From: Candidatus Bathyarchaeota archaeon
GTDB taxonomy: Archaea; Thermoproteota; Bathyarchaeia; Bathyarchaeales; DTEX01
Length of the DNA: 64,000 bases
NCBI GenBank assembly: GCA_963714275.1
Contig: CAVQNT010000005.1
Location: 1 to 64,000 of the forward strand
Reading direction: 5' to 3'
Shown here: in pieces, positions 1 to 17,536 of the stretch
Layout of the letters: each line of letters starts with the position of its first letter
Numbering within the stretch: the first letter of the stretch is position 1
The notes under the pieces: generated by a model
Database searches by the model: none
Seen by the model: only the letters and a program-made list of their open reading frames with translations
What the model was told of the DNA's origin: nothing
Position numbers and translations under genes: made by a program

Positions 1-359
1 TACTATGAGATTTCCGTAGGCGTCAGGTAATCAACGTTGATGCCATATTGACGGAGTATGTCGTATGTCCAAGCATAGGCTACGTCAAGGTCTACATCTG
101 TTGATGGTCGCCTTATGATTACACCCTTAAAATCTTCTCTATTCGAAATTCAGGATTAAAGCGCATCGAAAAAGTCTTCACGTCGAAAGACTTTTTTTAA
201 CGAGTTGCGGTAAAGGTAATTGTGAAATGTAGATAAACCGCCTACAGCTCCAACCCCAGCCTCGTAGGAGTCAACTCTTAACCTGATTGTCATACAGATT
301 TCAACTCATTTCATAGCGATTCGTGAAAGAACATAAGACAACTAGTTATAAAATTAAAT

Positions 360-370
360 AATAACATATG
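360..370 (+). repeat. Candidate attL core AATAACATATG
   Basis: Identical 11-mer at 17526-17536, just upstream of the integrase; could be chance in AT-rich DNA. Confidence 0.35.
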
Positions 371-376
371 TGTGCC

Positions 377-685
377 AGCCACTTAGGATTATTTAACAAG
401 TAACATGTATGATAGGTTAGCAGAGATGTATGAAGGAGACATAATTAAGGAATATCACAAAGTCGCATTGGAGCGAACTTCATAACGAATCAAAAGGTTA
501 GTCAAGAGACCATGCAGGAACTGCAAGCCCAAGTCAAAGAGTCAACTACACAGGTTAGGGAATTAACAGGTAAAGTTGTCAAGAGAGAGAATATTATCGA
601 AATGTTGTTGCAGAATGGAAAAACCAAAGATAAGCAGATTGAAGCGTTAATGAAAAGCATCGAGAATTTAAGGGAGGCTTTATGA
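377..685 (+). pseudogene. Remnant of a tyrosine integrase C-terminus
   Basis: HLG/YLTSNMY (1-nt shift) resembles GHEGYLTEVY of the intact integrase. ORF 512-685 LLQNGKTKDKQIEAL resembles its LLENGDAKDRQITAL. Confidence 0.6.
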
Positions 686-778
686 CACATTGGAGAAGAA
701 GGTCAAGAGTTAATCTTTAGGGCGATATTGCTATTTGAACTTTCCACTTTAAAACCTCATACGCTAGGTTGAAAAGTG

Positions 779-1856
779 TTATTTATGCCACAATAAGTGA
801 ACTACTCTCAGCCTCTTTTGTGCTGGGCGGGTTGGATTGGAGTTTACTCCACAACTTATTTTCGTAACATTGTATTTGGTTATTGAAGTTTTCTTGTTGT
901 AATTGAAGTACTCTGGATTGTCGTTCTTAAGGTTATTGTATTCAGGGGGTTCGAGATGAATGTAATCGATTTCCTTGCCATTCCATTTCATTCGGTTTCG
1001 ATATATCTTGGCATTATCAGTACACGTTTTTGTGTCAAACGATTGAAAGTTGTTTAGACCTATCTTCTTAAGAACATCAACATCGCCTTCTCCAAGAATA
1101 TGTAACCAAGCCTTTTCTCTCTATTTTCTCTCTGATTTTTTCTACTATAGAAGGCTTTTTAACACTTTGATTACTGGAATCTTGACTTTCATCCTCATCA
1201 AAAGAAGTAGGAGCATATGCATAGAAATCAGGTTCGTCTTCATAGTCAAGACCATGTTCTTCTCGATACGAATTGAAAATGTCACGAATTCTTTCTGTAC
1301 AATCAAGAACGTTTTTTCTAGTATATCCTTTAATCACTCCTACAACATGAAAATCCCAATTATATGTGTCCTGAAAATACTCTTTCCATTTCATAGCGTA
1401 TGCAACGTTCTCTATATTCTCGTTGAAACGCTTTTCAAGGAGAGATTTGTCCGTTATTTTATCGACTAGTTGTCCTCCACAGTGAGCACAATAAGGATCA
1501 TACTTTGAATGAATGTCCACACATTGTTCACAATATTTCTTTCCTGGAATATGTCTATGTGGCTTATCTAACGTGAAAATTAAATCGGGGTCACACTTGA
1601 ATTGACTAATCATCGCTTCAGCTTGACTGTGTGGATGATCTGGATGAACTACGATTCCTCCGCTCTCTGCTACCACTATCGAATTTTCAATGTGGATAGT
1701 GTACCCTCAAAACCCGGCGGATCGGTCGGGGGGATTGAAAGGGCATAGTCAACAAAAATAGCGATCCAAATTTATGGCCAGTTAAATGACCGTAAGATAA
1801 TTGAGCCACCATAACTAATAATGGAAAAAAACTTTGACAAAATTTCTTTTATTCAT
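779..1856 (-). CDS. TGT/DpdA-fold transglycosylase-like protein with inserted double Zn-ribbon (frameshifted)
   Basis: Joined frames give VVAESGG, DLIFTLDKP, VVGVIKG, AWLHILG, FQSFDT in TGT motif order; CEQC..CAHC insert; candidate ATG at 1856. Confidence 0.7.
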
Positions 1857-1866
1857 GTTCCCGCAC

Positions 1867-2708
1867 TTAATTGCAATCATACTTGTCATCCAATATTTCT
1901 CCTTCTTCAATGTCGAATTCTTCATAAAGCGGATAAATGACTGGAAAACCGAAATCTTTACTATAAAATTCTGTGAATCCCGCTAGACAGTGAATGATAA
2001 AATCATCAAAGTTGAGTTCTATATCTCCTGTGTTAACTAGGTGTCGATATATTTTAACTAGATTGAGGAACAAGTTACCTCTTATTGTACGCGTTGGTTC
2101 GTTTAGGTTCTTTTTTGACTCCCATAACCATATGTTTTCATCTAAGTCTTCGGGATTTGGTTTAATCCGAGGTTTCAAGTATTTCTGAGTAAATAAGATT
2201 GCCTTGTACGCCTTTTCAACGAGTATCGGAGCTTCTTTTTCTTTTTTGCCCATACTTCAGCGAATGTTTTTTTCATGTCCTCAAGAACTTCAGGTTCAAG
2301 ATCAACGCCGTGCTTACTTTGCAAGTCAGAAATCAAATTTAAAAATTGCAACTTGTTGCAAATTTCGCTTTTTGTGCATATGTTGTTGATGATCCACTTC
2401 CATTTGACTTTGGGATTCTCAATCAATTCTCTTGTTGTTGGTTTACTGAGCTTGTCGGGTTCATAAAGTGCGAACTCGACACAATAACGTAAGGTTCTAT
2501 ACCCCCAATTAAACCCATGTTTCTTTCTTATGGCAGCCGACAATTGAGCATAGTAATCCTGTTTCTCACCATACTTAAGGTTCTTGAATTTCGGGTCACT
2601 GAGTATCTTTCTTCCCATGTCATAGTGCGCTTGCTTCACTACTCGTCTTGATTTAGCAATTAGGTCTGCACATTCATCCAGAAATTCATCATCCCATTCG
2701 AACTTCAA
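1867..2708 (-). CDS. DUF1016/YhcG N-terminal-like domain protein (frameshifted)
   Basis: HYDMGRKIL...KYG...LSAAIRKKHGFNWGYRTLRYCVEF resembles the YhcG N-domain; two overlapping ORFs join at an A-rich tract. Confidence 0.55.
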
Positions 2709-2967
2709 AAATATCCTCCTCGTGCCTATTCTTTGTCGCTAGTTATATATAATTAAACTATGGTTAATCCACTTGTTCAACTCACCATGAATTTTGATGA
2801 TAATGCTTTATGCTTAAACATCATGTTAACTGTAAATATTCTCAATTTATGAAAATCCATTTTGAGGCTATTTTTGAAATTGGGTTTTTCCAAAATAGTT
2901 AAATACCGCTTATTAGAAATAAATTATATAAAATAACTAAATTTTACATAAAACGGAGTTTGTCTTT

Positions 2968-3567
2968 TTGAGCAGTAAAATTGGTTCTTCAGTCCTACAA
3001 ATGCATGATTCGAGTAACATTCTAACCATGCCATATGTGAACGGAGAATCTTCCAGAGGAAAAGTGCTCAACCTTTTAAAGAAGCACAAAGGGGAGGAGC
3101 TGAACATATATAAAATCGCCAAAGAATCAGGATTGTCATGGGTTACAACAAAGACGGCACTGATTGAGTCTCTATCTGATAATATGGTTAGTTATCGGCG
3201 AGTACCCTTTAGAAATGCAATATTATTTAAGTTAATGGAGGTGGACGAAGATATGAATAAAATAGGTAAATCGATATTAAGAGAGAAACCTGCCCCGTCT
3301 GATTTCAGCTTGAGTGAAGCAAAGACAAAACAAGAAGAACAGAAGGCAGAGAAACCAAAAGAGATCAAAGACACCGAAAAGATCAAAGAAAAAATGCCTT
3401 CCGAAACACATCCTGAAGGACAACCAGAGCAAAGTTATCCAGTAGGCTTAGCTGTAAAAAGAGAAGGTAAGGTCGAAGAAAAGAAGGACATAGAACTTCC
3501 TGTGCCTGGGAGACGAAAACCCAAGGTAGCCGAACAGGACATACTCGAAGGCATCATTAAGAAATAA
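2968..3567 (+). CDS. Winged-HTH protein with charged C-terminal tail (possibly two genes)
   Basis: KVLNLLKKHKGEELNIYKIAKESGLSWVTTKTAL HTH pattern; likely start ATG 3028; internal GGAGG before ATG 3252. Confidence 0.6.
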   Translation: MSSKIGSSVLQMHDSSNILTMPYVNGESSRGKVLNLLKKHKGEELNIYKIAKESGLSWVTTKTALIESLSDNMVSYRRVPFRNAILFKLMEVDEDMNKIGKSILREKPAPSDFSLSEAKTKQEEQKAEKPKEIKDTEKIKEKMPSETHPEGQPEQSYPVGLAVKREGKVEEKKDIELPVPGRRKPKVAEQDILEGIIKK

Positions 3568-3750
3568 ACTATCTATCTGTCAAAGTTTTGGTTCCTTTGA
3601 TATAGATATGGAATGTCCCTGACTGTTCCATAAGGCGTGGAAGTTATCCCTCCTCTTCCACGCCATTAGGTTGTTGGTGTGAAAAGAAAGCATCAATGGT
3701 TGTTGTTATCATAGAAACAGCGATAACGCTGTAAATGGAGGAATGAGGAA

Positions 3751-3969
3751 ATGATGGACGTAAAAAGACAATATATAGGTTTTATCCTAGAAGGAAATAT
3801 TGACGATGTTGAGACTTTAAAAGAGTTTATTGAAAAACATACGTCACTTACTATCCGATACATCACTGCCAGTCGCTACTATTTGTTAATAAAACCATCA
3901 CGCATTGATCATACAAAACTTGAATCTCTGAGAGAAAAATTCAAAAACAAGAAGGGAGATGAACAATGA
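3751..3969 (+). CDS. Small hypothetical protein, coupled to the Rep-like gene
   Basis: GGAGG upstream; stop overlaps the next start (ATGA). Confidence 0.65.
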   Translation: MMDVKRQYIGFILEGNIDDVETLKEFIEKHTSLTIRYITASRYYLLIKPSRIDHTKLESLREKFKNKKGDEQ

Positions 3970-5577
3970 CGACACAGTTTGCTCCAAAATTACCTGCTGA
4001 TGTAGATACTAACAAGCTGCCTAAACTGATAAAAGAATTTGAAGACATAGACAATCTAAATAATAGTATTGATTATGTATTACCTGAGGCTCCAAGTGGT
4101 ATATATAATGCAGGTGGAGAAAAATATGAGTTTGTTTATTCTACTACACCATTCACTGAAGAGATACTAAACTGCAACCTTACACAAATAAAAGAATGGG
4201 CAAAAAAAGGAATTAATTTTACACATAGTATAGCGGGATATTTTGAAAAGGAATTTAAGATAGAAAAGGCGGTTGCATATAACCTTTCCTTATTGATTCC
4301 TGACATATATCGTAATCCATTGACTTCATTAGGAATAGAAGAAAATCCGCATTTAGGTCTTTATGTTTGGGGATTGCCAGGCGATTGTAGAGATACTATT
4401 GCAAAATGTTTAGAAAAGGAGTGGTTATACTCAGGAAGATTATCTATGTCAGGACTTGACTCAAGTGTTGGAATATACAAATGCCTGTCTGTTCTAAATA
4501 AGAACATCTTATTGTTAGGAACCGACATAGGAACTGCATCTAAGAATTTAGAAACATGGCAAAAAAAGAATCCAGTAATTATAACAAATTTTCTTTGGGA
4601 CGCGTATGATGTAAGGCATACAAAGAGTGAGGGAAGTGTTGAGTGTCGTAATGAAGGTGCTTCGGCGTTTTTAGGAGGAAATGTTCCTTTAGGAAAAGAA
4701 CCATTCAATGTGAGAGATATAAGTAGAATCATTCAAAGAGAAATTCCGCCATTGAAAGATAGGCGAGCAGAGTTATTGTATAGAGCTGTTTTAAGAGAGG
4801 TTAAACTAAGCACCCTGCAACATTCATTATGGATAAGTTATCATGTATTATGTGCATGTATAATGCAAGGAAGTCTAAATGTAGGCATATTTAAAGGTCG
4901 CAGAACATATGCAAACATTCCGCCTGATATCTATAAGAAAATGGGAGCATTCGTTCTTAAAAAATATCTTGGTAATGTATACGAGTTTTATGACGATGAT
5001 AAAATATTTTCGGAAAGAGAAAAGATACTCAAAATGCTAAAAGAACAAGAGGCAGTTGAGGATGTTAATGCGATTCTGCGAATCTTAACTATGGCAGAAA
5101 TGATCGTAATGGATAGTACTATTGATAATATGCTGAACCGTCCATATGAAGTCCAAGGCAATGACATTCTCGTTTATAGTGTTGAGGAAGATCTAAAAAC
5201 ATTGCAGGTTATAATGGATAATATCTTTTGGCAGAATAAAAGAGATGAATTGCAAGATGAAATGAAAGCACGTAAGGCAAGGGAAACACCGATCTATTTA
5301 GATCCTGTCAAACAATTCTATGAAATTCTTAAAGGAATGCCTGATGAATTATTTTCTCCCAAAGAGACTGTATGGCATGGCGTTAAAGAAAATAGTTGTT
5401 GATAAAGAACTGTTACCCAAAGAAGAGTTCTATGAAGTATATGGAAATAACGAAATGATGATGTCTAACATCAAACTTCGAGGTGCAATAGAGAAACTTG
5501 AAATTATGCATAACATAAAATCTGGAGGTAAGAATCCTGTAAAATACATGTACTCAGAAAAAGAGGGAGTATCATAA
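3966..5577 (+). CDS. Degenerate MCM-like AAA+ replication protein with probable C-terminal wHTH (frameshifted)
   Basis: GLYVWGLPGDCRDT (Walker-A-like), LLLGTD, FLGGN (sensor-1-like), DISRI (Arg-finger-like); followed directly by iterons. Confidence 0.5.
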
Positions 5578-5719
5578 GCATCATGAGCATCATATACAAG
5601 GAGGCACATATCATAAGCATCATAAGCATCATGAACAAAAGGGCAGAAAGGACAGCATTTGAATTTTCCTGCCCTAAAAATAAGTTTGTATATGACACTT
5701 ATGATGCTCATGATGACAC
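5571..5719. repeat. 9-bp iteron array (ATCATRAGC), putative replication origin
   Basis: Two direct triplets (5571-5594, 5610-5636), an inverted set (5691-5714), and a central AGGGCAG/CTGCCCT inverted repeat. Confidence 0.7.
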
Positions 5720-5945
5720 CTAGGAAGGGGTTGTGGAGATTTGATCAACATTGGAAATGTCAAGGTTTTTTGGGTTTATTGATCAACATAAACTTCATGC
5801 TTTTTCAATAATTAATAATGTATATACAGAGAATTTTGGTGATACTTATACCACGAAAAAAGCAGAAAGAAAGGTAACATCTGTTTTTTGGTTACTTAAG
5901 ATGCCTCAACAGAAGTAACGCAACGAGAGTTAATTCTGTCAATAT

Positions 5946-6752
5946 GTGAAAAAAAGATTGGAAGGTGAAACTATGAGTCCGACAATGGAGGAAGAAGCAG
6001 AGGAATTGGTAGGTCAAATCAAGGATTTGAGTGAAGATCAGATAAAGGCAATAGTGAAAGAGATTTCTCTGAATGCTGTTGCAGTCAAGATCATCAAGTT
6101 CTTGATAGTCAATGAGGAGGTCAGTTATGGGAAAGAAATCAGAAAGGCATTAGGATTACATGATATGTCTGTCTACCATTCTTTACATCGATTGGCAGAA
6201 GGTCAGGTAATTATAGTGATGCCACCCGCTGCTTGTGGACGTAAGAATGTAATGTTGAACAAAGAGTTCCCATATGGGAAGATCATAGAGAAGTATAACA
6301 GACACATTGCCAGAAAATACCTATGCAAAATTGTACCTTCTGATAGATTTGTTGACTTGGAAGAATTGGAAAAGGACAAGAGGTTCATTGCTGAGTGCAA
6401 CGCTTATGGATTATCACATCAAGAAGCTTATACCGCGTTGGTAGATGCTCGAGAAGATGTGATTGAAACCACACCATTGTATAATCCATTAAGTAACAAA
6501 CAGATTGGAGTAGCAATAAGGTACAGAGTCAAGGATCTGCTCGGTTGTAGATATTGTGGATCAACAAATCTAAAAATAACATCATCATGGAAAGTGCCTC
6601 GACCCACTGATCCTACCAAATACTTTGTAGCATGCATGTACAAATGTGTTGATTGCGGAAGATCATTCCGAGGATCACAAGAAGAGAAAAAGGCAAAGGA
6701 ACCAAAGGGAGAAACTGATGAGGAGATTATTAAGTCAATAATCAAGGAATGA
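5946..6752 (+). CDS. wHTH protein with C-terminal zinc ribbon
   Basis: EIRKALGLHDMSVYHSLHRL HTH; CRYC and CVDC pairs. Confidence 0.65.
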   Translation: MKKRLEGETMSPTMEEEAEELVGQIKDLSEDQIKAIVKEISLNAVAVKIIKFLIVNEEVSYGKEIRKALGLHDMSVYHSLHRLAEGQVIIVMPPAACGRKNVMLNKEFPYGKIIEKYNRHIARKYLCKIVPSDRFVDLEELEKDKRFIAECNAYGLSHQEAYTALVDAREDVIETTPLYNPLSNKQIGVAIRYRVKDLLGCRYCGSTNLKITSSWKVPRPTDPTKYFVACMYKCVDCGRSFRGSQEEKKAKEPKGETDEEIIKSIIKE

Positions 6753-6755
6753 ACA

Positions 6756-6986
6756 ATGATCCTCGTTTTTTGTAGATTCCGAAGAGAGAATGGATGCAGT
6801 CTAAAGAAGAATCTAAACGTTCAGAACTTACCATCATCTTGTCCTAATAACTCAAAATGTCCATTGTATAATCCAAGGAGAGTAAAGGTGAGGAGTGTGT
6901 TCAGAAAGGAGTCGTTTGGAGCGGAGATACTTACAATAGAAGATGCACGATTAAGCAGTATCCTGTATGAGCCTTTTAAATCTTGA
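6756..6986 (+). CDS. Small Cys-rich hypothetical protein
   Basis: ORF directly downstream of the previous gene, four Cys. Confidence 0.45.
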   Translation: MILVFCRFRRENGCSLKKNLNVQNLPSSCPNNSKCPLYNPRRVKVRSVFRKESFGAEILTIEDARLSSILYEPFKS

Positions 6987-7198
6987 GAATTCGCATCGTG
7001 AAAGACTCTTTCTATAAGAAATTTGATTTAATTCAAATATGGGTTTGGGTTGTGCATTCTACTATGGTGTCAGATGTGTGAGGGAGATGAAATGTCAGAA
7101 ACACGGTGCATATTTGGGTTTAAGGTAAAAATGACTTTTCACTAAATTGTACTTTCATGGTTGTGAAAACCTTGAGTTCAAACATACAAGAAGAAAAC

Positions 7199-7508
7199 AT
7201 GAAATTTTTATCAAAGACACTTTCTATCCTCTTTCCACGATCTGTTGAGAATAGGAAGATAGCTTTTAGAGATATTAATTGAGTATAGAAATCGGATGCA
7301 TACCGAAGCAAGATATGATGCAAGCGAGTGGAGACAGTTTGCCGAACGCTTAGAGATCAGCGAAAGCAAATTTCAAACTGTACAGAATACACTACGAGAT
7401 GCAGGTATGTTAGACAAGAAGGGTGGACATCACGAAGGAGCGTACACAATATCAACAAAGTGGTTAGATGAACTGATCAATGAATGGCATGAGTTTCTTA
7501 CTCAATAG
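7199..7508 (+). CDS. wHTH protein (frameshifted near 7270)
   Basis: FAERLEISESKFQTVQNTLRDAGMLDK wHTH pattern; upstream frame MKFLSKTLSILFPRS. Confidence 0.55.
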
Positions 7509-7548
7509 GTGGAGATGTATGGAAATCTTAGCAAAACATCTGTGGCAA

Positions 7549-7650
7549 CATGGATACAAGCAAACTCTTGAGACATTGATTAACGAAGAAGCTCTATTAT
7601 TCGCCAAGTTCTTAAGGTATAAACGAGAAACATGGATACGAGAATTATGG
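7549..7650 (+). pseudogene. Probable C-terminal remnant of an archaeal solo/MGE-type Cas1
   Basis: HGYKQTLETLINEEALLFAKFLRYKRETW matches my recollection of archaeal solo Cas1 C-termini; the rest of the gene is absent. Confidence 0.5.
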
Positions 7651-7669
7651 TTATGTGAAGATATGACAA

Positions 7670-8614
7670 ATGATTAACTCTAATGGAATTAAAAGCAAAA
7701 TTCACTTTAGAATTTTGAGCAAGAAAGTAACAATTAAAGAATGCAAATACATAAGAAGACTTTTTCTCGAATGCCTAAAGGAAAATCAAGACATAGCCGA
7801 CTTGCTGAATAAAAAATATAAAAATATTCAAGTCTGCTTCTATTACGAAGCAACAGACCTTAATATAGAGAACACTCTAAGAAGCATCTTGAACGATAAT
7901 ACTTATAGATACTCTACCAAGCCCAATCCTGCATTTACGGTAAGTAGAAAGAATATAGGTTGCATAGTTGTATTCATGAAACATCTTAAGGAATACACTC
8001 AAAAAAGAGATGATGTTAAAGACATAGAAAAGTATCAAAAAAATGGCATTTTTGAAGAACTATGCCATTTAGTAGAGCAAAAAGGCGATGGCAGTGTTAA
8101 TCCTAGCCATTATTGGGCGTTATGGAGATTATATGTCAAAAGGAATTTACTATTATATGGAAATGAAATAATTGCACAACTTGACACTGATAGAAATCAC
8201 TATGAAGTTTATTTAATGATGGTAAAGGATTCCCCCAATGATTGGATCGAACGATATTGGAAATATTTTCTAGAAACTTCAGATACTTATAAAAAAAGAT
8301 ATGAACAATGGAAATTCAACACTCCAATAAACATAGTATACGCTAGGCTGATTACGGACTTCTTGCGTGAAATAAATGTTCTATGTGTTGTGGATAAAGT
8401 ACCGAGAGAAAAACTGTCGGATGAAAACAAGGGTAAATTGGATATTTTGATAGAAAAGGGGAACCTTAATGTAGAAAAAAAGAAATCTCTAATAGAAAAA
8501 GACATGGGTAGTGGTGCATTGACACTCATTAATTCATTAGATGAGAGTATATTCAAGACATCCGAATCTTTCTTCGGAGCTGTTCTAGACTTGTGGATAT
8601 CTCTTGGTCTTTGA
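7670..8614 (+). CDS. Hypothetical protein with a zincin-like EELCH motif
   Basis: Intact 314-aa ORF containing IFEELCHLVE. Confidence 0.6.
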   Translation: MINSNGIKSKIHFRILSKKVTIKECKYIRRLFLECLKENQDIADLLNKKYKNIQVCFYYEATDLNIENTLRSILNDNTYRYSTKPNPAFTVSRKNIGCIVVFMKHLKEYTQKRDDVKDIEKYQKNGIFEELCHLVEQKGDGSVNPSHYWALWRLYVKRNLLLYGNEIIAQLDTDRNHYEVYLMMVKDSPNDWIERYWKYFLETSDTYKKRYEQWKFNTPINIVYARLITDFLREINVLCVVDKVPREKLSDENKGKLDILIEKGNLNVEKKKSLIEKDMGSGALTLINSLDESIFKTSESFFGAVLDLWISLGL

Positions 8615-8641
8615 ATTTTATGTGTGTTGAGAGAGAGTTAG

Positions 8642-9781
8642 TTAGAGAGAGGAAGATAGAGATAGACCTTCATAGATCATTCTTAGAGAGCCATCAGAAT
8701 TTAAGAAAAATTCTTCAGGAATACCTTTCTTGTCTATAATGAATCTCCCAACATTCTTGGCAAGCTTTGATAATAAATTTGTGTCTGATGGAAATAGATT
8801 TCTTAGGTTCTCTTGTTCCACAGTCATCTTTCTAAAAAGAAACTCGTTGCAGATAAAGTCAAGAAATCTCGGAACTTGAATTGAAACCATAGGTTTTGCC
8901 AGCAGGCGGTTAGTCAAGTCGATCAAAGACTGATGCATAATCTGGAGGAGGGATTCGAAGCTTATCATAGTCAATTTTTTCAATTTCACCGAATTTTTCC
9001 TTAGTCTTCGCAACAATTATACCATAAGTAGCATCAAGAACCTTCTTTGAGAAATCAGGTGAACCGATGCCAGTAGTTAATAAGTTCACGATATATTCAG
9101 ATCTTTCTAAATCTGTAAAAGAAAATATCTCTTGACAAAGATATACTAAACTCAAAGAAAGCAGAATGCTTGCTTCGTAGATCAACCATCTTGATGCTTC
9201 AGGTTTTGGGTTCTTTGCTAGCATCTCAAGGGCTGTAATTGTTTGTTTCATTCTTGTAGAATTGTCCGTAAACCAAAACCGGGATCGTAAAAACCAATAG
9301 ACTTTGGAAAGCTGCGGGTCATCTTTGATGCTCTGATAATATTTCTGAATTCTTGGCTCATAGAACTCATAATTACAGGACCCTAAAAAATTTGAGGGTA
9401 TTCCGATTTGCTTCTCGAGTTCTGTCAGTCTTGCATAATCTACAGGAAGAACATTCAATTCCTGAGCAAAGCGCTTTACCTTTGAAGGAATAGTCTTTCT
9501 CACAACAAACGAGTTTGATGCTTCAAGATATCTGGAAAGCCCTGACAACCAGAGAATCCTGTCAACAATTCCATTCGACTCACCGCTTTTGCATTCGCAA
9601 ATTGCGATTTCAGGATTGAAACTAGTCGAGAAGCGAATCCCTAAAACATCAATGTCAGTAACATCGACACTTTCAGGGTAGAAATATGACCGTAATGTTA
9701 GGTGGCTCCTCGAAAAAAAGCCTTGATAGAATAAAAGTTCCTAATACGGTATTCAAGTAATATACTCTCAGGAATATTCAC
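8642..9781 (-). CDS. PD-(D/E)xK restriction-endonuclease-like protein (frameshifted)
   Basis: In-frame upstream extension of ORF 8910-9548 reads VTDIDVLG...IAICECKSG; GTG start at 9781 with GAGGTGAGG RBS. Confidence 0.7.
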
Positions 9782-9806
9782 AATTCCTCACCTCTTAGTA
9801 TTTTAA

Positions 9807-11052
9807 TCAAGCGTTTCCTGAGCTTTCATTGAAGACTCTGAAGAGTCCGCTTAGCCTGATTTTGTCCTGCTCAGGATTAATGAAATTACCAGTTTGGAAA
9901 AGCCCTCTTTCATCAAGCGCTACTTGATGACCCAGACCGAGTATTCTCTTATGCTTTAAGACCTCAAGGGCTGTCTTTGCAACATCTTCTTTGACTAGAT
10001 ACATGTTGTATCGGTCAGGCATTGATTTATCTTTCAAAACCTTCACTATGCCTTGATTCTCAAGCAACAAGAAGTCCGTTCCAATAGCAGTGGCTGGTCC
10101 AACCTGACCCTTGCTTATAAGAGCTTCAACAGTCTACAGGATATTTTACCTTTGAAATACTCGAGTAGTGCTGACCGAAACCAATTGAAGATAAGAAGAG
10201 TTTTACATCATCATATATATCTGGTATCAGCGCTTCTCCTCCTAACGAACCCCACATTCTTGGTGTAAACGTAAAACCCTTCTCAATACCAGTCTTGGTT
10301 GAGACCTGACATACATCAATTAAACCTGTCTTTCTCGAGGCAGCGAAAAGATCCTTGGGGAAACCTGAAAGAAGTTCAAGAGGTACTCCTTGATTAAGAG
10401 AAACAGATTTCAGTAGTTGCTCAACTGCCTCTTTTGATCCTTGTCAAGATGTGAAATAAAACCAGTAATATTCTTAGCGTTCTCACCCCAAACATATGGT
10501 GAATATATAAGAGCTGTTGGCTCTAAGTGGCTTTTCTTTAGTATTTGGAAACTTGATTGGAGTTCCAAAGCGATCTCTGCATCTTTTTTATTGAGCCCTT
10601 GTTCTACGAGGGCTTCTGTAAGTTCTCCTTCTGTTCGAGGAATAATCGAGCATTGATCCAGATTAAATATGCTGGCCCTCTCCACATCATTCGCTCCTGT
10701 TGCCTCCCAAACGTCATGGGTTATCGTCAGGATATCATCTTCTGGAGGAATATTTTCTTCAATTCTGTGAATCTTTCCTGTCCCGTCTCTCTTTGTACTA
10801 ATGACACCAGAATTCTCCAGAGTTGGCAAGATCACCATTCTGAGTTGAGTAGGCAGGATTCCTATAGAGGTTGCCATAGCTGAAAAGGATAAGTAATCGT
10901 CGATGATCTCCCATACCTCGCATTCTTGCCATGATTCTTGCGCATTGACCAGCCAATATTGTAGCATCATAGTACGAAAGATAATTACCCGTAAACTCCT
11001 GCAGATGCTTCTGAGTGTCAATTATCCAAGTAGCAGCACGGTCTTTATTCAC
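9807..11052 (-). CDS. Conserved hypothetical protein, probably multi-wHTH (frameshifted)
   Basis: Several frames join into one ~410-aa protein from MNKDRAATWII through GQVGPATAIGTDFLLLENQGIVKV; lies just upstream of the nuclease gene. Confidence 0.65.
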
Positions 11053-11589
11053 TATTCACAACCCCAGAAATATGAACTGAACAAACAGCGATTTAAGAAT
11101 TCTTAAAGTAAGGTAACTTAGAATACAAGAAATGCAAGCCCAATATATGCAAAGATGGGAGTCAGCAGATTAAATTTCACGTATTCTCCTCTTTGTAATA
11201 TTAGTGAGTTTAAACGAATTTAATACCTGGATTATTGCATAAACTTTTGGCATCATTTTGAGGTTCTTTTAACAAATAATGGTTAAATACGACTTATTGG
11301 GACATTTTAATCATATAAAGGAGGTGAAAGTATGAGTAAAGTGATAGGAAAGACAAGAATTCAGAGTCGGTTCCGTTAACACAAGTAGCTCAGGAAGTTG
11401 TCAAGAAGAAACCTCAGGAAATACTGTTGTTCATACTTTACAAAAACGACCGAACACAGGCACAGAAGGCGAGAACATTAGACACGGGTGCGTTGAAGGC
11501 AAGTCATTATATCATAAAGAAAGACCAAGACCGAATGATCATTGAAGAGTCCGAGTTGACAAACACCAAAGAAAGCAAACGTAATCAAG

Positions 11590-11820
11590 TTGAATGGTAG
11601 CAGTTACACACAAGAAAAGAAAAAGGATGGTTCAATAGCCTTAGTCCCAGTGGCAGAGGAAGACATTGAGGGATTTGACATAACGAAAGGAACCAAAGGA
11701 TCGGTTGATACACATGAGATGGTAAAAGTTATCCGAAAGTTCATCAATGATTACGCAGAGAAAGGAATCTATGGACTGTTTGGTGAAGGAGAGAAACTGT
11801 CATTAGAAAAGTGGCGTTAA
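11590..11820 (+). CDS. Hypothetical protein, possibly a decayed fragment
   Basis: Short ORF followed by a T-run. Confidence 0.3.
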   Translation: MNGSSYTQEKKKDGSIALVPVAEEDIEGFDITKGTKGSVDTHEMVKVIRKFINDYAEKGIYGLFGEGEKLSLEKWR

Positions 11821-12120
11821 ATTTTTTTTCTTAGTAAATGTGCTAAATGTTCTAAACTTTTTGGGTATTTTCTCAGTAAACCGAGAATTGAAGATAAAAT
11901 GAGATTTTTAACAGCAAAAGTTTTCACTAATGCAAAATATTTGTGGATTCTGAGAAAAATTAACTTGATTGCTAATAAATATGGTACAGATAAGATAGGT
12001 ATGGTTTTTGCTACATCATATGTTGCTGAATCACTAACAAATACGGAATCTAAGCAGTTAATAATCGCATCAAATCTTGACTAAACTACTCACGGAAAGG
12101 CAGTATGTTTCTCGGTCTGC

Positions 12121-12339
12121 CTACTCTTTATCTACCTTGACTTTCTTTATTTCAATATTACCCTCTTTCTTAGAAACCACGTAACAGCATTCAGAAAGCC
12201 CGATATTTTTCTTTGTCCTAACAATTATAGATTCGCCCTCTTTGATTTTATACGGGACAAATTCCAGTATTTTCCTTGTCTTTTCATATTTTACTGGAAA
12301 GTCTATCGTGGGAATCTTTTTTTCTTTGTCTGTGGACAT
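12121..12339 (-). CDS. Small hypothetical protein
   Basis: ATG ORF 2 nt downstream of the neighbouring ORF, Lys-rich. Confidence 0.5.
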   Translation of the reverse strand: MSTDKEKKIPTIDFPVKYEKTRKILEFVPYKIKEGESIIVRTKKNIGLSECCYVVSKKEGNIEIKKVKVDKE

Positions 12340-12341
12340 GA

Positions 12342-12566
12342 CTATTTCTTCTCTTCAACAATTTTGAAAATCTTTATGGTCTTTCCTTCTTTGCAAACAG
12401 CAATCTTTTCAGGTGCTTCATTAGCAACGGGAATCGTAGAACCAATAACACAAGACCCCGAAGTCATTTTGTTTAGTTTGTCAACATCAAGATTAACTGA
12501 AAAAGAACCGCTATAATTTACTTGCCCCTCTTTCAATTGTAATTTTCTTTTCTTCTGGCATTGCAA
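12342..12566 (-). CDS. Small hypothetical protein
   Basis: Tandem with 12121-12339; start uncertain. Confidence 0.45.
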   Translation of the reverse strand: MQCQKKRKLQLKEGQVNYSGSFSVNLDVDKLNKMTSGSCVIGSTIPVANEAPEKIAVCKEGKTIKIFKIVEEKK

Positions 12567-12950
12567 GCCGCCAAGAATACTTATCGCTCTTTACAGATAA
12601 AGGATTTTCTACAATTCGGAGCGTCAAACTTTGCTCGGTTAGCATACGGCAAACTTCAACCGAATTGACCAAATCGCATGAAGGGTGAGTATTGGCATTT
12701 CAACGAATTCGATACAGAACAGGCAGGGGAGCAGATTTGACAAGTTGCCAGTTAAAGAATTATTTAACCATGAGGATTTTGCTCAACTAACTTTCAAAAT
12801 TATTTAAGCAATTACTTAACTACTGCTCTGCTCAAAATCGGCAATCACCAAAAAGCCAAAAACCTAATGTGGCAGGGGCATTTCTTCTTCAAGATTTGCT
12901 TCTCATAAAATCTTAAAACTGCTTAACTGTAATACTTACATGGTGAAAAT

Positions 12951-13721
12951 GTGTCTCTTTTCGGTTCAAATCTCTCAGAAGTCAATTCACGTTTGTTCGA
13001 GAATTTGAAAAAGACCAAAGCAGTATTTCCCGAAGAAACTGAGAGAATCGAATGGGGTTTAGCCTTAATGCGTGACTTAACCCAAATCACAAAGGAAGCA
13101 TCAAAAGAGTACCCAACGAAGCCAAACCTGCCAGCAAATCACGACCTTTTTGCAAGAAATAGACAGCTATTACTCAATGCCTATACATCCTTACTATTTT
13201 CATGCTATGGAACACAATTTGTGATTTTGAGAACAGTCTTGGAAAATGATAATCTAATGCGATTATTTAACAAAAACCCACAACATGCGTTCGAGTGGCT
13301 TCCAAAGAATCTTCAAGAGCGATTCACCAAGGAAACAAAACTCAAATATGGCAAAACTGGAAAACATGACCAAACCTATTTTCCTTCGGTAGTTAGAGAT
13401 AACGTTTTCGAAGGCGTAAGCAAAGAAAAGGTTAGAAAAGACATCAAGATATTCTATGACCAACTATGTAATTACACACATCCTAACTTCATTGGTTGGA
13501 GAGAACTCACATTCAAGAGGGGAGACGCAGAGTTTGTTATGAATATACCCTGTTTTTCATCTGAGAATGCCGAAACAGCTATTGGGGTTACCCTTTTCCT
13601 AATGCAAGCATCTTTCAAAGCCTTTGCTGAGACCTTTAGAGGTCACTTAGCTGATTTCGCTTATCAGCTTACTGAATGGCAAGATAACTTCAACAAACTA
13701 ATATTGAAATTCAAAGACTAA
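12951..13721 (+). CDS. HEPN-like helical protein (DUF5677-like)
   Basis: ILRTVLE and FYDQLCNYTHPN motifs. Confidence 0.55.
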   Translation: MSLFGSNLSEVNSRLFENLKKTKAVFPEETERIEWGLALMRDLTQITKEASKEYPTKPNLPANHDLFARNRQLLLNAYTSLLFSCYGTQFVILRTVLENDNLMRLFNKNPQHAFEWLPKNLQERFTKETKLKYGKTGKHDQTYFPSVVRDNVFEGVSKEKVRKDIKIFYDQLCNYTHPNFIGWRELTFKRGDAEFVMNIPCFSSENAETAIGVTLFLMQASFKAFAETFRGHLADFAYQLTEWQDNFNKLILKFKD

Positions 13722-14169
13722 CACGTTTCAGGTTACTTCATCTTTTCTTTCCATATTTCAAAGGCATCTTCTGCTAAACCACTAAATAGCGCAAATGACT
13801 ATCAAAAGGCGATGAAAGACATAAACGAAATAGACTTCGCTTGTCCTAACTGTGGAAAAAAGTAAACGTTGAGGCAAAGATATACCAACCTATGAATAAA
13901 ATGGAGAAAGCTTCATTATTCAAAGCATTGGGTATAACATTAGTTGTTACCTATTATATAATTTGAGCACTTACTCATATATTAAAGATGAAAAAGAATA
14001 CACCTATTATGTGCTAGTCCTACTGGTGTATCCGCCAACCGTGGAATACGAACTAGTCTATTGCAGACGATGTGTGACACAGCTTCAAAGTAAGTTTTAG
14101 GTTCAAGACTTTGAACCGCCCCTTCTTTTTAGTTAGCTACTCGACGCTTGTCTTGTTGAATTAAAATGG

Positions 14170-14606
14170 TTACTTAACTTCGTCAGGAAATCCCTTGTAC
14201 TCAACAACATTTAGTTGTTTGAGGAAATCTAAGAAGTCATAGACCGACTCTTGTTTTACAATCTTGCCATCGACTATATGCCATTTATGAATACTGTGAA
14301 CGAGACTTTTTTTCCAGTTGGGGCTAATCCGCGAAATTCACCCAGATGCGTTCCCACTTCTCTGACATGAGCCCAGACATTTTCCTCTTCAGCTATTATA
14401 TCCTCAACAGCCACATGTAAATCAGGAAAGGCTGTCCAGAGCGGAGCCATGAACTGCTCACTCCTATCGATAAAATCCTGTGACATTATTCCATCTAGCA
14501 AAGTGAGATTCTTCGTATTAATCGCTTCAAACACTCTGCGAACAATTGCCTTATTCTCTTCTAGCGACAAGAAGCCTTCATATCTCCTTGAATAAGAAAG
14601 ATTCAA
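14170..14606 (-). CDS. SnoaL-like ester cyclase (frameshifted near the C-terminus)
   Basis: AFPDLHVAVEDIIAEE...GTHLGEFRGLAPTGKKV; shifted frame continues VDGKIVKQESVYDFLDFLKQL. Confidence 0.8.
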
Positions 14607-14611
14607 ATCAA

Positions 14612-15112
14612 TTAAGAAACGCTATGTGCTAAGAGTTTCTTCGCTTTTTGTGTGTATTCAATAACACCTAATTGTTTATAGAAACTCAGTTCATCTGGTA
14701 ATCCCCACGCTTCCATAATCTTGCCATCAACTATGCGTTGGATGTGAACAGACATAAAAGTAAATTTCTTACCAGTAGGGGCTAATCCGCGAAATTCACC
14801 TGTGTGTGTACCCGTTTCCTTAAGGAAAACCCAAACCTTGTCGCCTTCAGCGATTATGTCTTCGATAGTCTCATGGAAATCTGGAAAGCCCTTGAAAAGC
14901 ATAGTCGAGAATTTTTTGACCTCTTCCAGACCCCGTAAATGATTTGTGTGGTCAACATAATCGGGTGCTATTAACTCGTCTAGTAAGTCTAGGTTTCGCT
15001 CATTCAGGGCTTCCAACATCTTGCGAATAATAGCCTTATTCTTCTCTAATGACATAATACATTCACTTCTTTTCCATCCATGTCCTACAAAGGACATATA
15101 CTCCAAGCTCAT
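14612..15112 (-). CDS. SnoaL-like ester cyclase
   Basis: GFPDFHETIEDIIAEGDKVW...GTHTGEFRGLAPTGKK; probable start MSLEKNK. Confidence 0.9.
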   Translation of the reverse strand: MSLEYMSFVGHGWKRSECIMSLEKNKAIIRKMLEALNERNLDLLDELIAPDYVDHTNHLRGLEEVKKFSTMLFKGFPDFHETIEDIIAEGDKVWVFLKETGTHTGEFRGLAPTGKKFTFMSVHIQRIVDGKIMEAWGLPDELSFYKQLGVIEYTQKAKKLLAHSVS

Positions 15113-15197
15113 TCTACACTGTTAGGATATACCCTTTTTTGAAGGAAAGATGATTAAGTAGTCGGAGAAGAAATGAATCGACGTTCAAGGTGATTAT

Positions 15198-15683
15198 GTG
15201 CAGAACAATCTTAAAGAACATTTCGTGAGGCTAGGAGGAGAAAAAGATAAGAACTGTTTTGAGTGCACTCACTTGAATCACGAGAAATTGGAATGTGTAG
15301 TTCCCCACGTTACTCAGCACTCACAAAAAATGAAGAGTGTCATAGACTATACGAAACTTGTGGAGAGTGTAGAGGAGTTGAAGGGGTACGGGGCAAAATG
15401 TCCTTTCTTTAAGGCAGGAAGGTATATGTGGGAGATTAAAAGGGAGATTATGAAGATACTCGAAGAGAATCTGGATGAGGCTTTCGACTCTCACGAGTTG
15501 AAATCAAGGTTACAGTTGAAGGTGTCTGAGGCTGAGAACTTTGAGAAGGCTTTTAACGAGTTGAAATACTTGTATGGTGTGAACTCGTCTGGCGCGCAGG
15601 AGCTCTCTAGAGATGCAGAGCGACTAGGATTGGGTAAATCGTTCTTAGGATTGAGGTCAAACCTAAAATATGGAACCTCATGA
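15198..15683 (+). CDS. Hypothetical protein
   Basis: 161-aa ORF with CFEC and a possible HTH-like C-terminal half. Confidence 0.5.
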   Translation: MQNNLKEHFVRLGGEKDKNCFECTHLNHEKLECVVPHVTQHSQKMKSVIDYTKLVESVEELKGYGAKCPFFKAGRYMWEIKREIMKILEENLDEAFDSHELKSRLQLKVSEAENFEKAFNELKYLYGVNSSGAQELSRDAERLGLGKSFLGLRSNLKYGTS

Positions 15684-15776
15684 ACTTTAAATTGATTGAC
15701 CCAACATTTTCATAATATATGTTCTAACATGAGAATCATGCCAAATATAATAAAAGAAACTGGAGATTGGTAAATA

Positions 15777-16004
15777 ATGGATATAAAGGAACGTTTGGTG
15801 GCTATTGGGAAATCGATTGTTGCATATACAATTTTGGCTATTTATGCTATTGTCTGCTGGTTTTTGGGAGTTAGGGACATTAAATTAATGCTCGTTGTTT
15901 TTTTCGGGGGACTTTTTACTTTTGCCATTGTATTTACTTTATTCAAAGAACTGTCCAAAAAACGAAAAGAAAAGAAGAAACTTCATTCATCAACCATTAG
16001 ATGA
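15777..16004 (+). CDS. Small membrane protein
   Basis: Two hydrophobic segments and a basic tail. Confidence 0.55.
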   Translation: MDIKERLVAIGKSIVAYTILAIYAIVCWFLGVRDIKLMLVVFFGGLFTFAIVFTLFKELSKKRKEKKKLHSSTIR

Positions 16005-16141
16005 AAGACTCCATAAATGTGTGCATTGAATTAGAATCTTAGCCTGTCGAAATACAGATTTTCTCGCCACCGAACTCATAGATGTCTATCTAAGGCGCTT
16101 CAAAACCAAAGATTAAATTAAATTACCAGGTACTAACCCTA

Positions 16142-17386
16142 TTAAATTTTAATCTTTTTCTCTTTAAGGACATCAGCAAGTTCCTTCAAATTAAGCTTCT
16201 TGTCCTCAGGAAGCTGTTCTATTAAATTTAGCATTACTTTAGTATGCACAACATTGACAACATCGAGTTGTTGCTTCATTTCCTTTACCTGTTCCGACAA
16301 TGCAGTAATTTGTCTGTCCTTAGCATCGCCATTTTCGAGTAGTTTGTCAACAACTCTTTCGTTCCTGATAATGGTATCTTGTGATGTTTGAACTTTGGTC
16401 TCTAAAGTTTTGACTTCATGTTGAATAGCAGTAATATCCTGAGTTCCAAATATGGCTAATACATGCTCACCTTTTTGATAATATTCAGCAAGTTGTTGAA
16501 CGGAATATTTCCGATAAACCTCAGTCAAGTATCCTTCATGACCCATCAATGCCTCTACAATGTCAACTGGTATAATTGCACCGAGCTGTGTCCTGAAGAA
16601 TTTCCTCAAACAATGTGGATGAAAAACGTGCCTATGAGTTGCATCATCTAATTGATTAAGTCCAACTTTATCTAATGCCCTGTTCCAAATCTCTAAAGCA
16701 GTGAAATCTGTAAAAGGAAAGAGATATTCATTGTTTTTCGTTTTATCGTGTAGTGTACTTTTCTTCACTGATGTTACAACATATGAACCCTTAACCGTCA
16801 ACCATTCTTTGATGATTTCCTTTGCTTCATTAGAAATGAAAGCAATCCTGCTGTTGCCCGACTTTGTGTATTCACGCTTTATGTTGATGATTGCAGGGTC
16901 TTTATCTAACTCAACATCACTCATTTTTAATTGAAGTGTTTCACCTATCCGCATACCTGAACTACTCAATGTTGTGAACAACGCTTTACCATGCAAGGGA
17001 AGATGTAATAAAATCCTTCTTAGCTCCTCATTACTGGGAACTTTGTCAACCGTTACTGCTCTTGTACCTTTGAACCTCCTTCGTAATCCACGCCAAAACG
17101 CTTGGTCAAATTCAACTTTGTTCTCTAAAAGGAACATTTTAACAATTGACAAGTTTTGCTGTATTGATTTAGGCGGATTGTCTTTTATAGTAATGAAAAA
17201 CTTTTTGACATCCTCTTCGTAATCATGCTCTTGCCTAAAATAGTCACTTGCAACAGTTTCTAACTGTCCTTCACCATAAACAGTCTTTAAAAACTTTTTA
17301 ATGATTGTTTTATAAACCTTGACTGTAGACTTTGCAGTATATTCATTTAAGAAACCTATGCCTTTGACTTCATTCATGCAACACAC
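16142..17386 (-). CDS. Tyrosine recombinase/integrase with C-terminal coiled coil
   Basis: SSGMRIGE, TKSG, HCLRKFF and LMGHEGYLTEVY give the R-K-H-R-H-Y catalytic set. Confidence 0.95.
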   Translation of the reverse strand: MCCMNEVKGIGFLNEYTAKSTVKVYKTIIKKFLKTVYGEGQLETVASDYFRQEHDYEEDVKKFFITIKDNPPKSIQQNLSIVKMFLLENKVEFDQAFWRGLRRRFKGTRAVTVDKVPSNEELRRILLHLPLHGKALFTTLSSSGMRIGETLQLKMSDVELDKDPAIINIKREYTKSGNSRIAFISNEAKEIIKEWLTVKGSYVVTSVKKSTLHDKTKNNEYLFPFTDFTALEIWNRALDKVGLNQLDDATHRHVFHPHCLRKFFRTQLGAIIPVDIVEALMGHEGYLTEVYRKYSVQQLAEYYQKGEHVLAIFGTQDITAIQHEVKTLETKVQTSQDTIIRNERVVDKLLENGDAKDRQITALSEQVKEMKQQLDVVNVVHTKVMLNLIEQLPEDKKLNLKELADVLKEKKIKI

Positions 17387-17525
17387 AAATCATATATTCT
17401 GCCCTGTTATATTTATTCCTATTGGTCAACCAATGTTTAATAATAATATAATATTTAGAATTTGTGAAATATCGGGTCTGAAATTTATGTAGAGCTGATG
17501 TGTTAAGGACCATCTAAAGGCTTGA

Positions 17526-17536
17526 AATAACATATG
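17526..17536 (+). repeat. Candidate attR core AATAACATATG
   Basis: Identical to 360-370; sits at the change from AT-rich to host-like composition. Confidence 0.35.

Follow-up and report, generated by a model that had tools for sequence, protein, structure and literature searches.

The window analysed here is a 64,000-nucleotide stretch of a Candidatus Bathyarchaeota archaeon genome (assembly GCA_963714275.1, contig CAVQNT010000005.1, positions 1 to 64,000 of the forward strand). Close to its start, inside an integrated element of low GC (guanine plus cytosine) content, lies a broken gene that resembles both the tRNA-guanine transglycosylases (TGTs) and DpdA, whose enzymes are treated as a signature of 7-deazaguanine modification of DNA. 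A first-pass annotation made from the sequence alone had inferred a divergent, DNA-modifying transglycosylase. Our results place the gene in a small branch nearest DpdA and suggest that this copy has decayed. Three-frame translation and frameshift-aware alignments with P0002, P0003, P0006, P0009 and P0011 as references gave the features listed below.

783-1856, minus strand: whole TGT/DpdA-like gene remnant, with ATG at 1854-1856 and stop at 783-785
1690-1856, minus strand: shredded N-terminal part in three frames (FFPLL 1816-1830; YGGSIILRSFNWP 1775-1813; TAA 1772-1774; IWIAIFVDYALSIPP 1727-1771; RRVLRVHYPH 1690-1719)
1080-1706, minus strand: largest open piece, 209 residues, with ESGG, TLDKP, zinc ribbon and VIKG
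1656-1667, minus strand: ESGG, in which Glu stands in for the general acid/base Asp of DSGG (aligned to the DSGG of an open frame of ArcTGT length)
1560-1574, minus strand: TLDKP, its Asp in the position of D130, the base-recognising Asp of DpdA (alignment; role from PMC10164549)
1479-1532, minus strand: CxxC-x10-CxxC (CEQC...CAHC), a zinc-ribbon-like insert after the TLD strand, found among the relatives only in P0002, P0003 and P0004
1326-1337, minus strand: VIKG, with Lys in place of the Gln or His of the family, the site of H181 in DpdA (alignment)
1155-1283, minus strand: two acid-rich inserts, DIFNSYREEHGLDYEDEPD and SFDEDESQDSSNQSVKK, found only in the window copy (alignments; predicted local distance difference test score, pLDDT, below 50 at residues 171-181)
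1112-1120, minus strand: A-run where the reading passes from frame 2 to frame 0, after ...KIREKIE and before EKAWLHILG
907-1117, minus strand: second piece, frame 0, carrying WLHILG and SFDT
1031-1108, minus strand: WLHILG (1091-1108) and SFDT (1031-1042), the SFDT Asp at the place of the catalytic nucleophile (profile alignment)
786-915, minus strand: frame change near 903-915, then the C-terminal helix motif of the family, LQLQQENFNNQIQCYENKLW (849-908), in frame 2 (alignment)

The five motifs ESGG, TLDKP, VIKG, WLHILG and SFDT thus stand on the minus strand in the order of the TGT motifs, as the first-pass annotation had described. Its view that the gene can be read by joining frames was correct for the motifs, but the gene is more broken than that view implied. 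A reading of 783-1856 has to change frame at least five times and crosses an in-frame TAA (1772-1774), with the pieces distributed across three frames. Relative to P0002, the breaks lie near 1814-1830, 1720-1746, 1689, 1112-1118 and 903-915. The path along this protein runs from FFPLL through a frame change to YGGSIILRSFNWP, the TAA and IWIAIFVDYALSIPP, and through two further frame changes, on either side of RRVLRVHYPH, to the 209-residue piece; it continues over the frame change at 1112-1118 to the WLHILG/SFDT piece and over that at 903-915 to LQLQQENFNNQIQCYENKLW and the stop. The N-terminal fragments align with 'FFPLFGSSTPFWPWKTIFVEFGYLP...DLRVHYKH' of P0002, and the sole upstream ATG (1854-1856) is in a frame different from that of FFPLL. 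The true C-terminus lies in frame 2 and ends at 783-785, not in the frame-0 tail that ends at 779-781. The canonical CxCxxC after SFDT was absent from every frame used of the window copy.

In an exhaustive phmmer search through 1.84 billion representatives, the 209-residue piece matched the intact protein P0002 (313 residues) at 46% identity (E 5.8e-27). A2, a profile built from ten intact relatives, matched the two main window pieces at E 1.1e-24 and 1.5e-7. Hence the motif set is not due to chance. Judged by sequence, the window copy is a divergent member of the TGT/DpdA superfamily, as had been claimed, and belongs to a small, rare branch nearest DpdA. A word-index homologue search with the 209-residue piece returned only its own gene call, and among the PHROGs the window pieces touched only phrog_887 (E 0.069).

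The ESGG family

In the exhaustive search, phmmer found only ten proteins at E <= 0.001, among which is the gene call of the window copy itself; with metagenome loci counted, the family has 13 distinct intact members and one partial member. They score 227-383 bits against A2, the next TGT-like group reaching at most 77 bits, and are 251-376 residues long. ESGG takes the place of DSGG in all 14 and in the window copy, so that the Glu noticed in the first-pass annotation is a family-wide trait. The missing CxCxxC, likewise noticed there, is absent from the family too (0 of 14). The CxxC..CxxC insert, which had also been seen correctly, occurs in three of the 14 (P0002, P0003 and P0004) besides the window copy. 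At the 'QG' site, ten of the 13 intact members have Gln and three His, with Lys in the window. The invariant columns include E-S-G-G, the Asp of TLD.P, the H, L and G of WLHLLG, and S-F-D.

Against an archaeal open frame of ArcTGT length (542 residues), A2 aligns ESGG with DSGG ('imvESGG' to 'IMTDSGGYQ'), TLDYP ('TlDyP') with ILDYP, VIQG with PIQGG, LHLLG with LHLFG and SFDSA ('SFDsa') with TFDSA. In the PDB profile search, the SFD of the family was aligned with IDMFD of bacterial TGT and TSID of DpdA. The catalytic nucleophile Asp (D280 in Z. mobilis, D256 in DpdA) is therefore present as the invariant Asp of SFD, and the base-recognising Asp (D130 of DpdA) as the invariant Asp of TLD.P. At the general acid/base place (D95 of DpdA), all 14 members and the window have Glu. 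The His181-Gly of bacterial DpdA is mostly replaced by Gln-Gly, and the structural zinc site CxCxxC...H is found neither in the family nor in the window. In DpdA, D95 is the general acid/base, D130 and H181 contact the base edge, D256 is the nucleophile, and C368, C370, C373 and H395 bind zinc (Gedara et al. 2023, PMC10164549). Since the three Asp residues (D95, D130 and D256) are termed invariant in both TGT and DpdA in that source, the Glu for D95 together with the missing zinc site means that the family departs from the description at two defining points.

The branch appears to be so far undescribed, the new traits being Glu for the acid/base Asp, the lack of the zinc site, and the ribbon in one sub-branch. 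The literature on further DpdA subfamilies and on archaeal-virus preQ0 and transglycosylase genes gave no description of it, with the supplementary viral DpdA lists of Hutinet 2019/2023 lying outside this comparison. No relative was found in IMG/VR by profile and sequence scans with A2, P0011 and P0009, and tblastn with P0002 gave no match in 50,697 phage and archaeal-virus records. From genome contigs, the profile search returned nothing but two distant loci in Paenibacillus (L002:6642-10630 and L003:6589-10546). At each of them, two TGT-like genes of about 692 and 313 residues adjoin each other, both with DCG and CxCxxC; they form another TGT-like group, which stands apart from the ESGG family. 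Another DpdA-like group occurs in the same phylum as the host, in the form of two short archaeal TGT-like frames (about 313-318 residues; L006 in G380:C4 and L008 in G115:C1) that have the His-Gly motifs 'VAHGWN' and 'VVHGWN' and DSL or DSM for DSGG.

Nearest known families, fold and tree

In the PDB profile search, the family found the bacterial DpdA chain 7ui4_A at E 1.9e-7, followed by bacterial TGT (2e-4) and ArcTGT (0.017). The PADLOC DpdA model and NCBIfam NF041059 (DpdA) matched all ten members tested, with best E values of 3.3e-14 and 7.6e-16, respectively; TIGR00432 (TgtA) matched four of the ten, and phrog_887 (the PHROG of queuine tRNA-ribosyltransferase) touched one. PF20314 (DUF6610, DpdA4) and PF23859 gave no row for any of nine relatives at E <= 1. 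As far as profiles can tell, DpdA is the nearest known family, though the ESGG family is not a member of it.

With bacterial DpdA (Salmonella Montevideo Dpd system, PDB 7UI4, NF041059) the family shares a predicted TGT-type TIM barrel, the nucleophile and the base-reading Asp, the lack of tRNA-binding domains, and the best curated profile for ten of ten members. It differs in having Glu instead of Asp95 and Gln, His or Lys in place of His181. It also lacks the CXCX2CX22H zinc site and the large Ins8 domain (251-376 versus 413 residues) and has no dpdB or dpdC nearby. Like DpdA1-DpdA4 of phages and archaeal viruses (PMC6884629, PMC10516641), its members are short viral TGT-like enzymes. P0009 has FolE, QueD, QueE and QueC encoded alongside it, as have the enzymes of the 'group 2' DpdA phages (PMC6884629), and the window gene is a singleton as in the 76 'group 3' phages; in contrast to DpdA1-DpdA4, ESGG replaces the Asp motif. 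ArcTGT (TgtA, PDB 1IQ8) has the same core motifs one-to-one (DSGG/ESGG, LDYP, IQG, LHLFG/LHLLG, FDSA; 65.6 bits) and the same archaeal setting. However, the ESGG members are about half as long, without the C1, C2 and PUA domains (ArcTGT-like open frames in the phylum scan measure about 480-590 residues), lack the zinc site, have Glu for Asp, and occur in viruses and integrated elements.

AlphaFold2 modelling of P0002 with A2 gave a pLDDT of 84.8 and a predicted template modelling score (pTM) of 0.84, with low pLDDT (52-71) in the ribbon insert; the 209-residue window piece folded with its relatives reached 78.9. The predicted fold is the TIM barrel of tRNA-guanine transglycosylase (PF01702 fold). 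Exhaustive structural alignment returned bacterial DpdA (7UI4, chain 7ui4_A, 413 residues) as the best match of the window fragment. In this alignment the ESGG Glu (residue 14) falls at DpdA position 95, provided that the first 14 residues align gap-free. Among the structural hits there are also proteins from Vibrio phage nt-1, from Cellulophaga phage phiST and from a Sulfolobales rudivirus.

The tree was built with a quick method and included one spurious antisense open frame (Arc_L009_-_2373_453), so that it is relied on only for the pairing of the window copy with P0002 and for the branch lengths. The pairing has a support of 97 in the Shimodaira-Hasegawa-like approximate likelihood ratio test (SH-aLRT), and the terminal branch of the window copy is 1.44 long, that of its sister P0002 0.40. 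ArcTGT forms a separate clade (SH-aLRT 100). The ESGG family can form one side of a branch, with branch support 0.

A relative encoded next to preQ0 genes

The most informative neighbourhood was found around the family member P0009 in L031, 20.9 kb (L031:1-20918) of a 42.6-kb metagenome contig that is virus-like and has all genes on one strand:

L031:2516-3451: QueC, upstream of P0009
L031:3674-4078: PTPS/QueD, upstream of P0009
L031:4402-5058: QueE-like radical SAM protein, upstream of P0009
L031:5788-6501: FolE2, upstream of P0009
L031, upstream of P0009: primase large subunit
L031:9283-10020: PCNA, on one side of P0009
L031:10001-11047: P0009, member of the ESGG family
L031:14070-15116: RFC, on the other side of P0009
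L031:15304-17784: PolB, on the other side of P0009

The 'group 2' DpdA phages show such a combination (PMC6884629): a virus that makes preQ0, with a single TGT-like enzyme encoded amid the replication genes. Because P0009 lies beside a full FolE2-QueD-QueE-QueC set and replication genes, we read the ESGG family as probable DNA 7-deazaguanine transglycosylases, with DNA as the substrate and the nature of the base inferred. In L032 and L033 the member adjoins a tyrosine-integrase-like gene. The contigs of the other members are only 1.7-3.7 kb long. The gene upstream of the L032 member weakly resembles the window gene at 1867-2708 (BLASTP E 3e-5, 21% identity over 159 residues).

L031 further contains, just upstream of QueC, genes for an extra radical SAM protein of 342 residues and for a GT2 glycosyltransferase and, downstream of PolB, a DUF488 gene (active N3a subclade). 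These genes hint at further tailoring of the modified base.

The reaction of TGT and DpdA is a double displacement. In the intact members, the Asp of SFD would attack C1' and displace guanine, the Glu of ESGG would serve as the putative general acid/base, and the Asp of TLD.P would read the base edge; a preQ0-type base would then be inserted. The base exchange would protect viral DNA from restriction.

No preQ0 synthesis genes were found in the host assembly

The host assembly (G000) is 91% complete and has one TGT gene, which is split in two frames (G000:C1:8854-9826). For QueC, its best scores were 25-28 bits against a cut-off of 150; PTPS/QueD, FolE and FolE2 were not found in it, and tblastn of QueC, QueD and FolE2 from L031 against the host assembly and the element gave no match. 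QueC exceeded the cut-off in six of 41 genomes of the host's order. The claim that the enzyme uses host precursors is thus left unsupported, although salvage could still provide the base. Salvage has been discussed for phages with a singleton DpdA and for STSV2 (PMC6884629, PMC10516641), and the host lineage may depend on salvaged 7-deazaguanine bases. No que genes were found in the element either (Pfam scan; tblastn with the L031 proteins), nor dpdB or dpdC genes, in agreement with the first-pass annotation; the TGT-like gene is all that the element and L031 have in common.

Probable decay of the window copy and rival explanations

To obtain an error baseline, 165 open reading frames of a complete genome of the same order were compared with the host genome, which gave 50 orthologue-like matches with 63.8 kb aligned. 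A frame change was present in 17 of the 50 host genes, 20 in total or 0.31 per kb, with at most two per gene. Against this baseline stand at least five frame changes and a stop in the 1.07 kb of the TGT-like gene. The Poisson chance of at least five breaks is about 3e-5, and below 1e-3 at a doubled rate, a figure which is crude since errors cluster. The homopolymer density of the gene exceeds that of the host part of the window by a factor of only 1.2-1.8. Moreover, the window copy differs at four of 21 family-invariant residues (K98R, K140L, D179T and G201A), and a fifth invariant column (G220) lies at a break; in this alignment the segment 1773-1812 was translated in the wrong frame, which leaves the counted columns unaffected. 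The excess of breaks over the baseline, the changed invariant residues and the long terminal branch together make this copy look like a pseudogene, and we consider it probable that it really is one. The idea of a working gene thus finds no support for the window copy. Most likely this copy is inactive, a relic in a host lacking synthesis of the base.

The rival to be taken most seriously is that the gene is intact in the cell and that all breaks are errors of long-read assembly, in which case a DpdA-like enzyme would work with a salvaged 7-deazaguanine base. Indel errors in this assembly are clear: conserved genes carry frame changes at the rate given above, and the host genes for GH57, class I LysRS (lysyl-tRNA synthetase; window 19468-21062) and TGT are split as well. 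Three of the breaks fall at T7, C6 and A4 runs, so that some or all may be artefacts, and the catalytic motifs of the window copy (ESGG, TLD, WLHILG, SFD) are all kept. Public reads (two runs, 151-nucleotide contigs) span only 1360-1647, where they contain no indels, and reach no break. There are also precedents: the Sulfolobus virus STSV2 has DpdA and a host without the pathway and still contains dCDG, and Salmonella phage 7-11, with DpdA only, has some dADG (PMC10516641, PMC6884629). Yet none of the host genes examined has more than two frame changes, the homopolymer density is raised only slightly, the TAA is not an indel, the neighbouring element genes of 1.2-1.4 kb are open, four invariant residues are altered, and the terminal branch is long. 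We therefore regard an intact gene as unlikely. In any case, every broken gene in the host genome G000 calls for checking at the level of reads.

Two other alternatives concern the family as a whole. Its members could act on tRNA, as pared-down viral ArcTGTs that place preQ0 in tRNA to tune translation. The best reverse profile score is indeed that of open frames of ArcTGT length (65.6 bits, from ESGG through SFD), most members have Gln-Gly like TGTs and not the His-Gly of bacterial DpdA, TIGR00432 matches four of ten, and one source labels P0002 'queuine/archaeosine tRNA-ribosyltransferase'. However, 251-376 residues leave no room for the tRNA-binding C1, C2 and PUA domains of the ArcTGT-like proteins (about 480-590 residues), the DpdA models match ten of ten members with the top scores, the L031 member lies among replication genes, and every phage TGT-like gene tested so far acts on DNA (PMC10516641). 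An action on tRNA is thus quite improbable. Slightly more doubtful still is a changed reaction, in which the switch to Glu and the loss of the zinc domain would go with another base (CDG, DG or a non-deaza purine) or with plain base excision. The Glu replaces an Asp called invariant in TGT and DpdA (PMC10164549), CxCxxC is found in none of the 14 members, the que genes of L031 are accompanied by a GT2 gene and a second gene of the radical SAM type, and DpdA3 is thought to use bases other than preQ0 (PMC10516641). On the other side, the full FolE2-QueD-QueE-QueC set beside P0009 indicates preQ0 or a derivative, the nucleophile and the base-reading Asp are retained, and Asp to Glu is a conservative change. 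The different base substrate suggested in the first-pass annotation found no evidence; the neighbours of P0009 make preQ0. An E. coli TGT with the mutation D89E reportedly keeps some activity; a literature search for this mutant gave only entries in reference lists.

Several further results weigh against the reading favoured here. The equivalog cut-off of NF041059 (200 bits) was not reached, P0002 scoring 48.7 bits over positions 147-263 of 406 only. Pfam TGT (gathering cut-off 26.3 bits) gave a row for seven of nine relatives, of which only P0008 (38.9 bits) was above the cut-off, and none for the window pieces; the pieces alone matched no TGT model in Pfam, in NCBIfam or among PDB sequences (phmmer). 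With the half-barrel fragment model, Foldseek, proposed as a check in the first-pass annotation, returned nothing at E <= 0.001, with RuBisCO first (1.3e-3) and TGT second (2.0e-3), whereas the exhaustive structural alignment gave DpdA as the best match. The DNA role draws on one genomic neighbourhood and on profile matches below threshold. Finally, an enzyme that has Glu as its general acid/base residue is not known to have been assayed.

Taken as a whole, we lean towards the interpretation that the window contains a decayed copy of a gene for a short TGT-fold transglycosylase, of a branch nearest DpdA and likely inactive here. The claim of a DNA-modifying transglycosylase remains the best guess for the family, through the preQ0-pathway neighbours of P0009, but the window copy is probably not working. 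A bolder proposal, to which we give little credence, is that the ESGG-type proteins without a zinc site constitute one more DpdA subfamily, carried by viruses and integrated elements of mesophilic archaea that are uncultured. In this proposal the Glu, together with the ribbon at the catalytic face in one sub-branch, would go with a changed specificity for base or target, and the window gene would be decaying in a lineage mostly without preQ0 synthesis.

For DpdA enzymes, the three active-site Asp residues and the zinc site are regarded as conserved. If the assignment is true, a natural branch with a Glu acid/base and no zinc site would widen the sequence rules for finding such systems, because the branch stays under the Pfam and NCBIfam cut-offs (one of nine relatives exceeds that of Pfam) and was unmatched in the searches of phage records and IMG/VR. 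It would also be a natural test of what the acid/base Asp does. The family would extend DpdA-like systems to viruses of uncultured archaea that are neither halophilic nor Sulfolobus. Beyond illustrating how a gene decays when its substrate is not made, the window copy contributes little.

The element and its flanks

The remaining features describe the element and its surroundings:

360-17536: low-GC integrated element, about 17.2 kb long and flanked by the 11-bp direct repeats AATAACATATG (360-370 and 17526-17536)
16142-17386, minus strand: tyrosine integrase at the right end of the element (PF00589, E 1.5e-16; phrog_1, E 8.5e-27)
1867-2708, minus strand: upstream neighbour of the TGT-like gene, function not assigned, split once in a K/A-run
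9-305, minus strand: left host flank, 5' part of a gene that runs off the contig start (tblastn with the 477-residue frame of the C7 paralogue: 80% identity over 99 residues; glycosyltransferase-like by eye only)
17675-19098, plus strand: right host flank, GH57 gene split in two frames (PF03065 on both halves)

The GC content of the element is 0.34-0.39, that of the DNA outside 0.41-0.50. AATAACATATG is found four times in the 2.64-Mb host assembly, and the homology of the left flank to contig C7 stops inside the left copy. The element had been thought to be cut by the contig start; the direct repeats suggest instead that it lies whole within the window, the attachment sites being candidate assignments. 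Beyond the integrase, the other open reading frames of the element gave no Pfam or PHROG match, apart from a weak HNH-like row.

Some minor observations were made on the way. The contig start (window 10-368) is 96% identical to G000:C7:120419-120777, which comprises the 5' end and the upstream region of the C7 gene. This counterpart also edges a low-GC block (about 120.8-128 kb), possibly another element, integrated at a paralogous site. At window 7552-7640 lies a repeat of about 80 nucleotides with copies on at least six contigs (75-83% identity), for which a miniature inverted-repeat transposable element or a conserved leader or peptide are candidates. The 881 nucleotides of window 15139-16018 are 95.8% identical to G000:C2:393569-394449, and the SnoaL-like genes at 14274-15112 come from a family that has multiple copies in the host. 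In its right part, the element may be a mosaic with host DNA.

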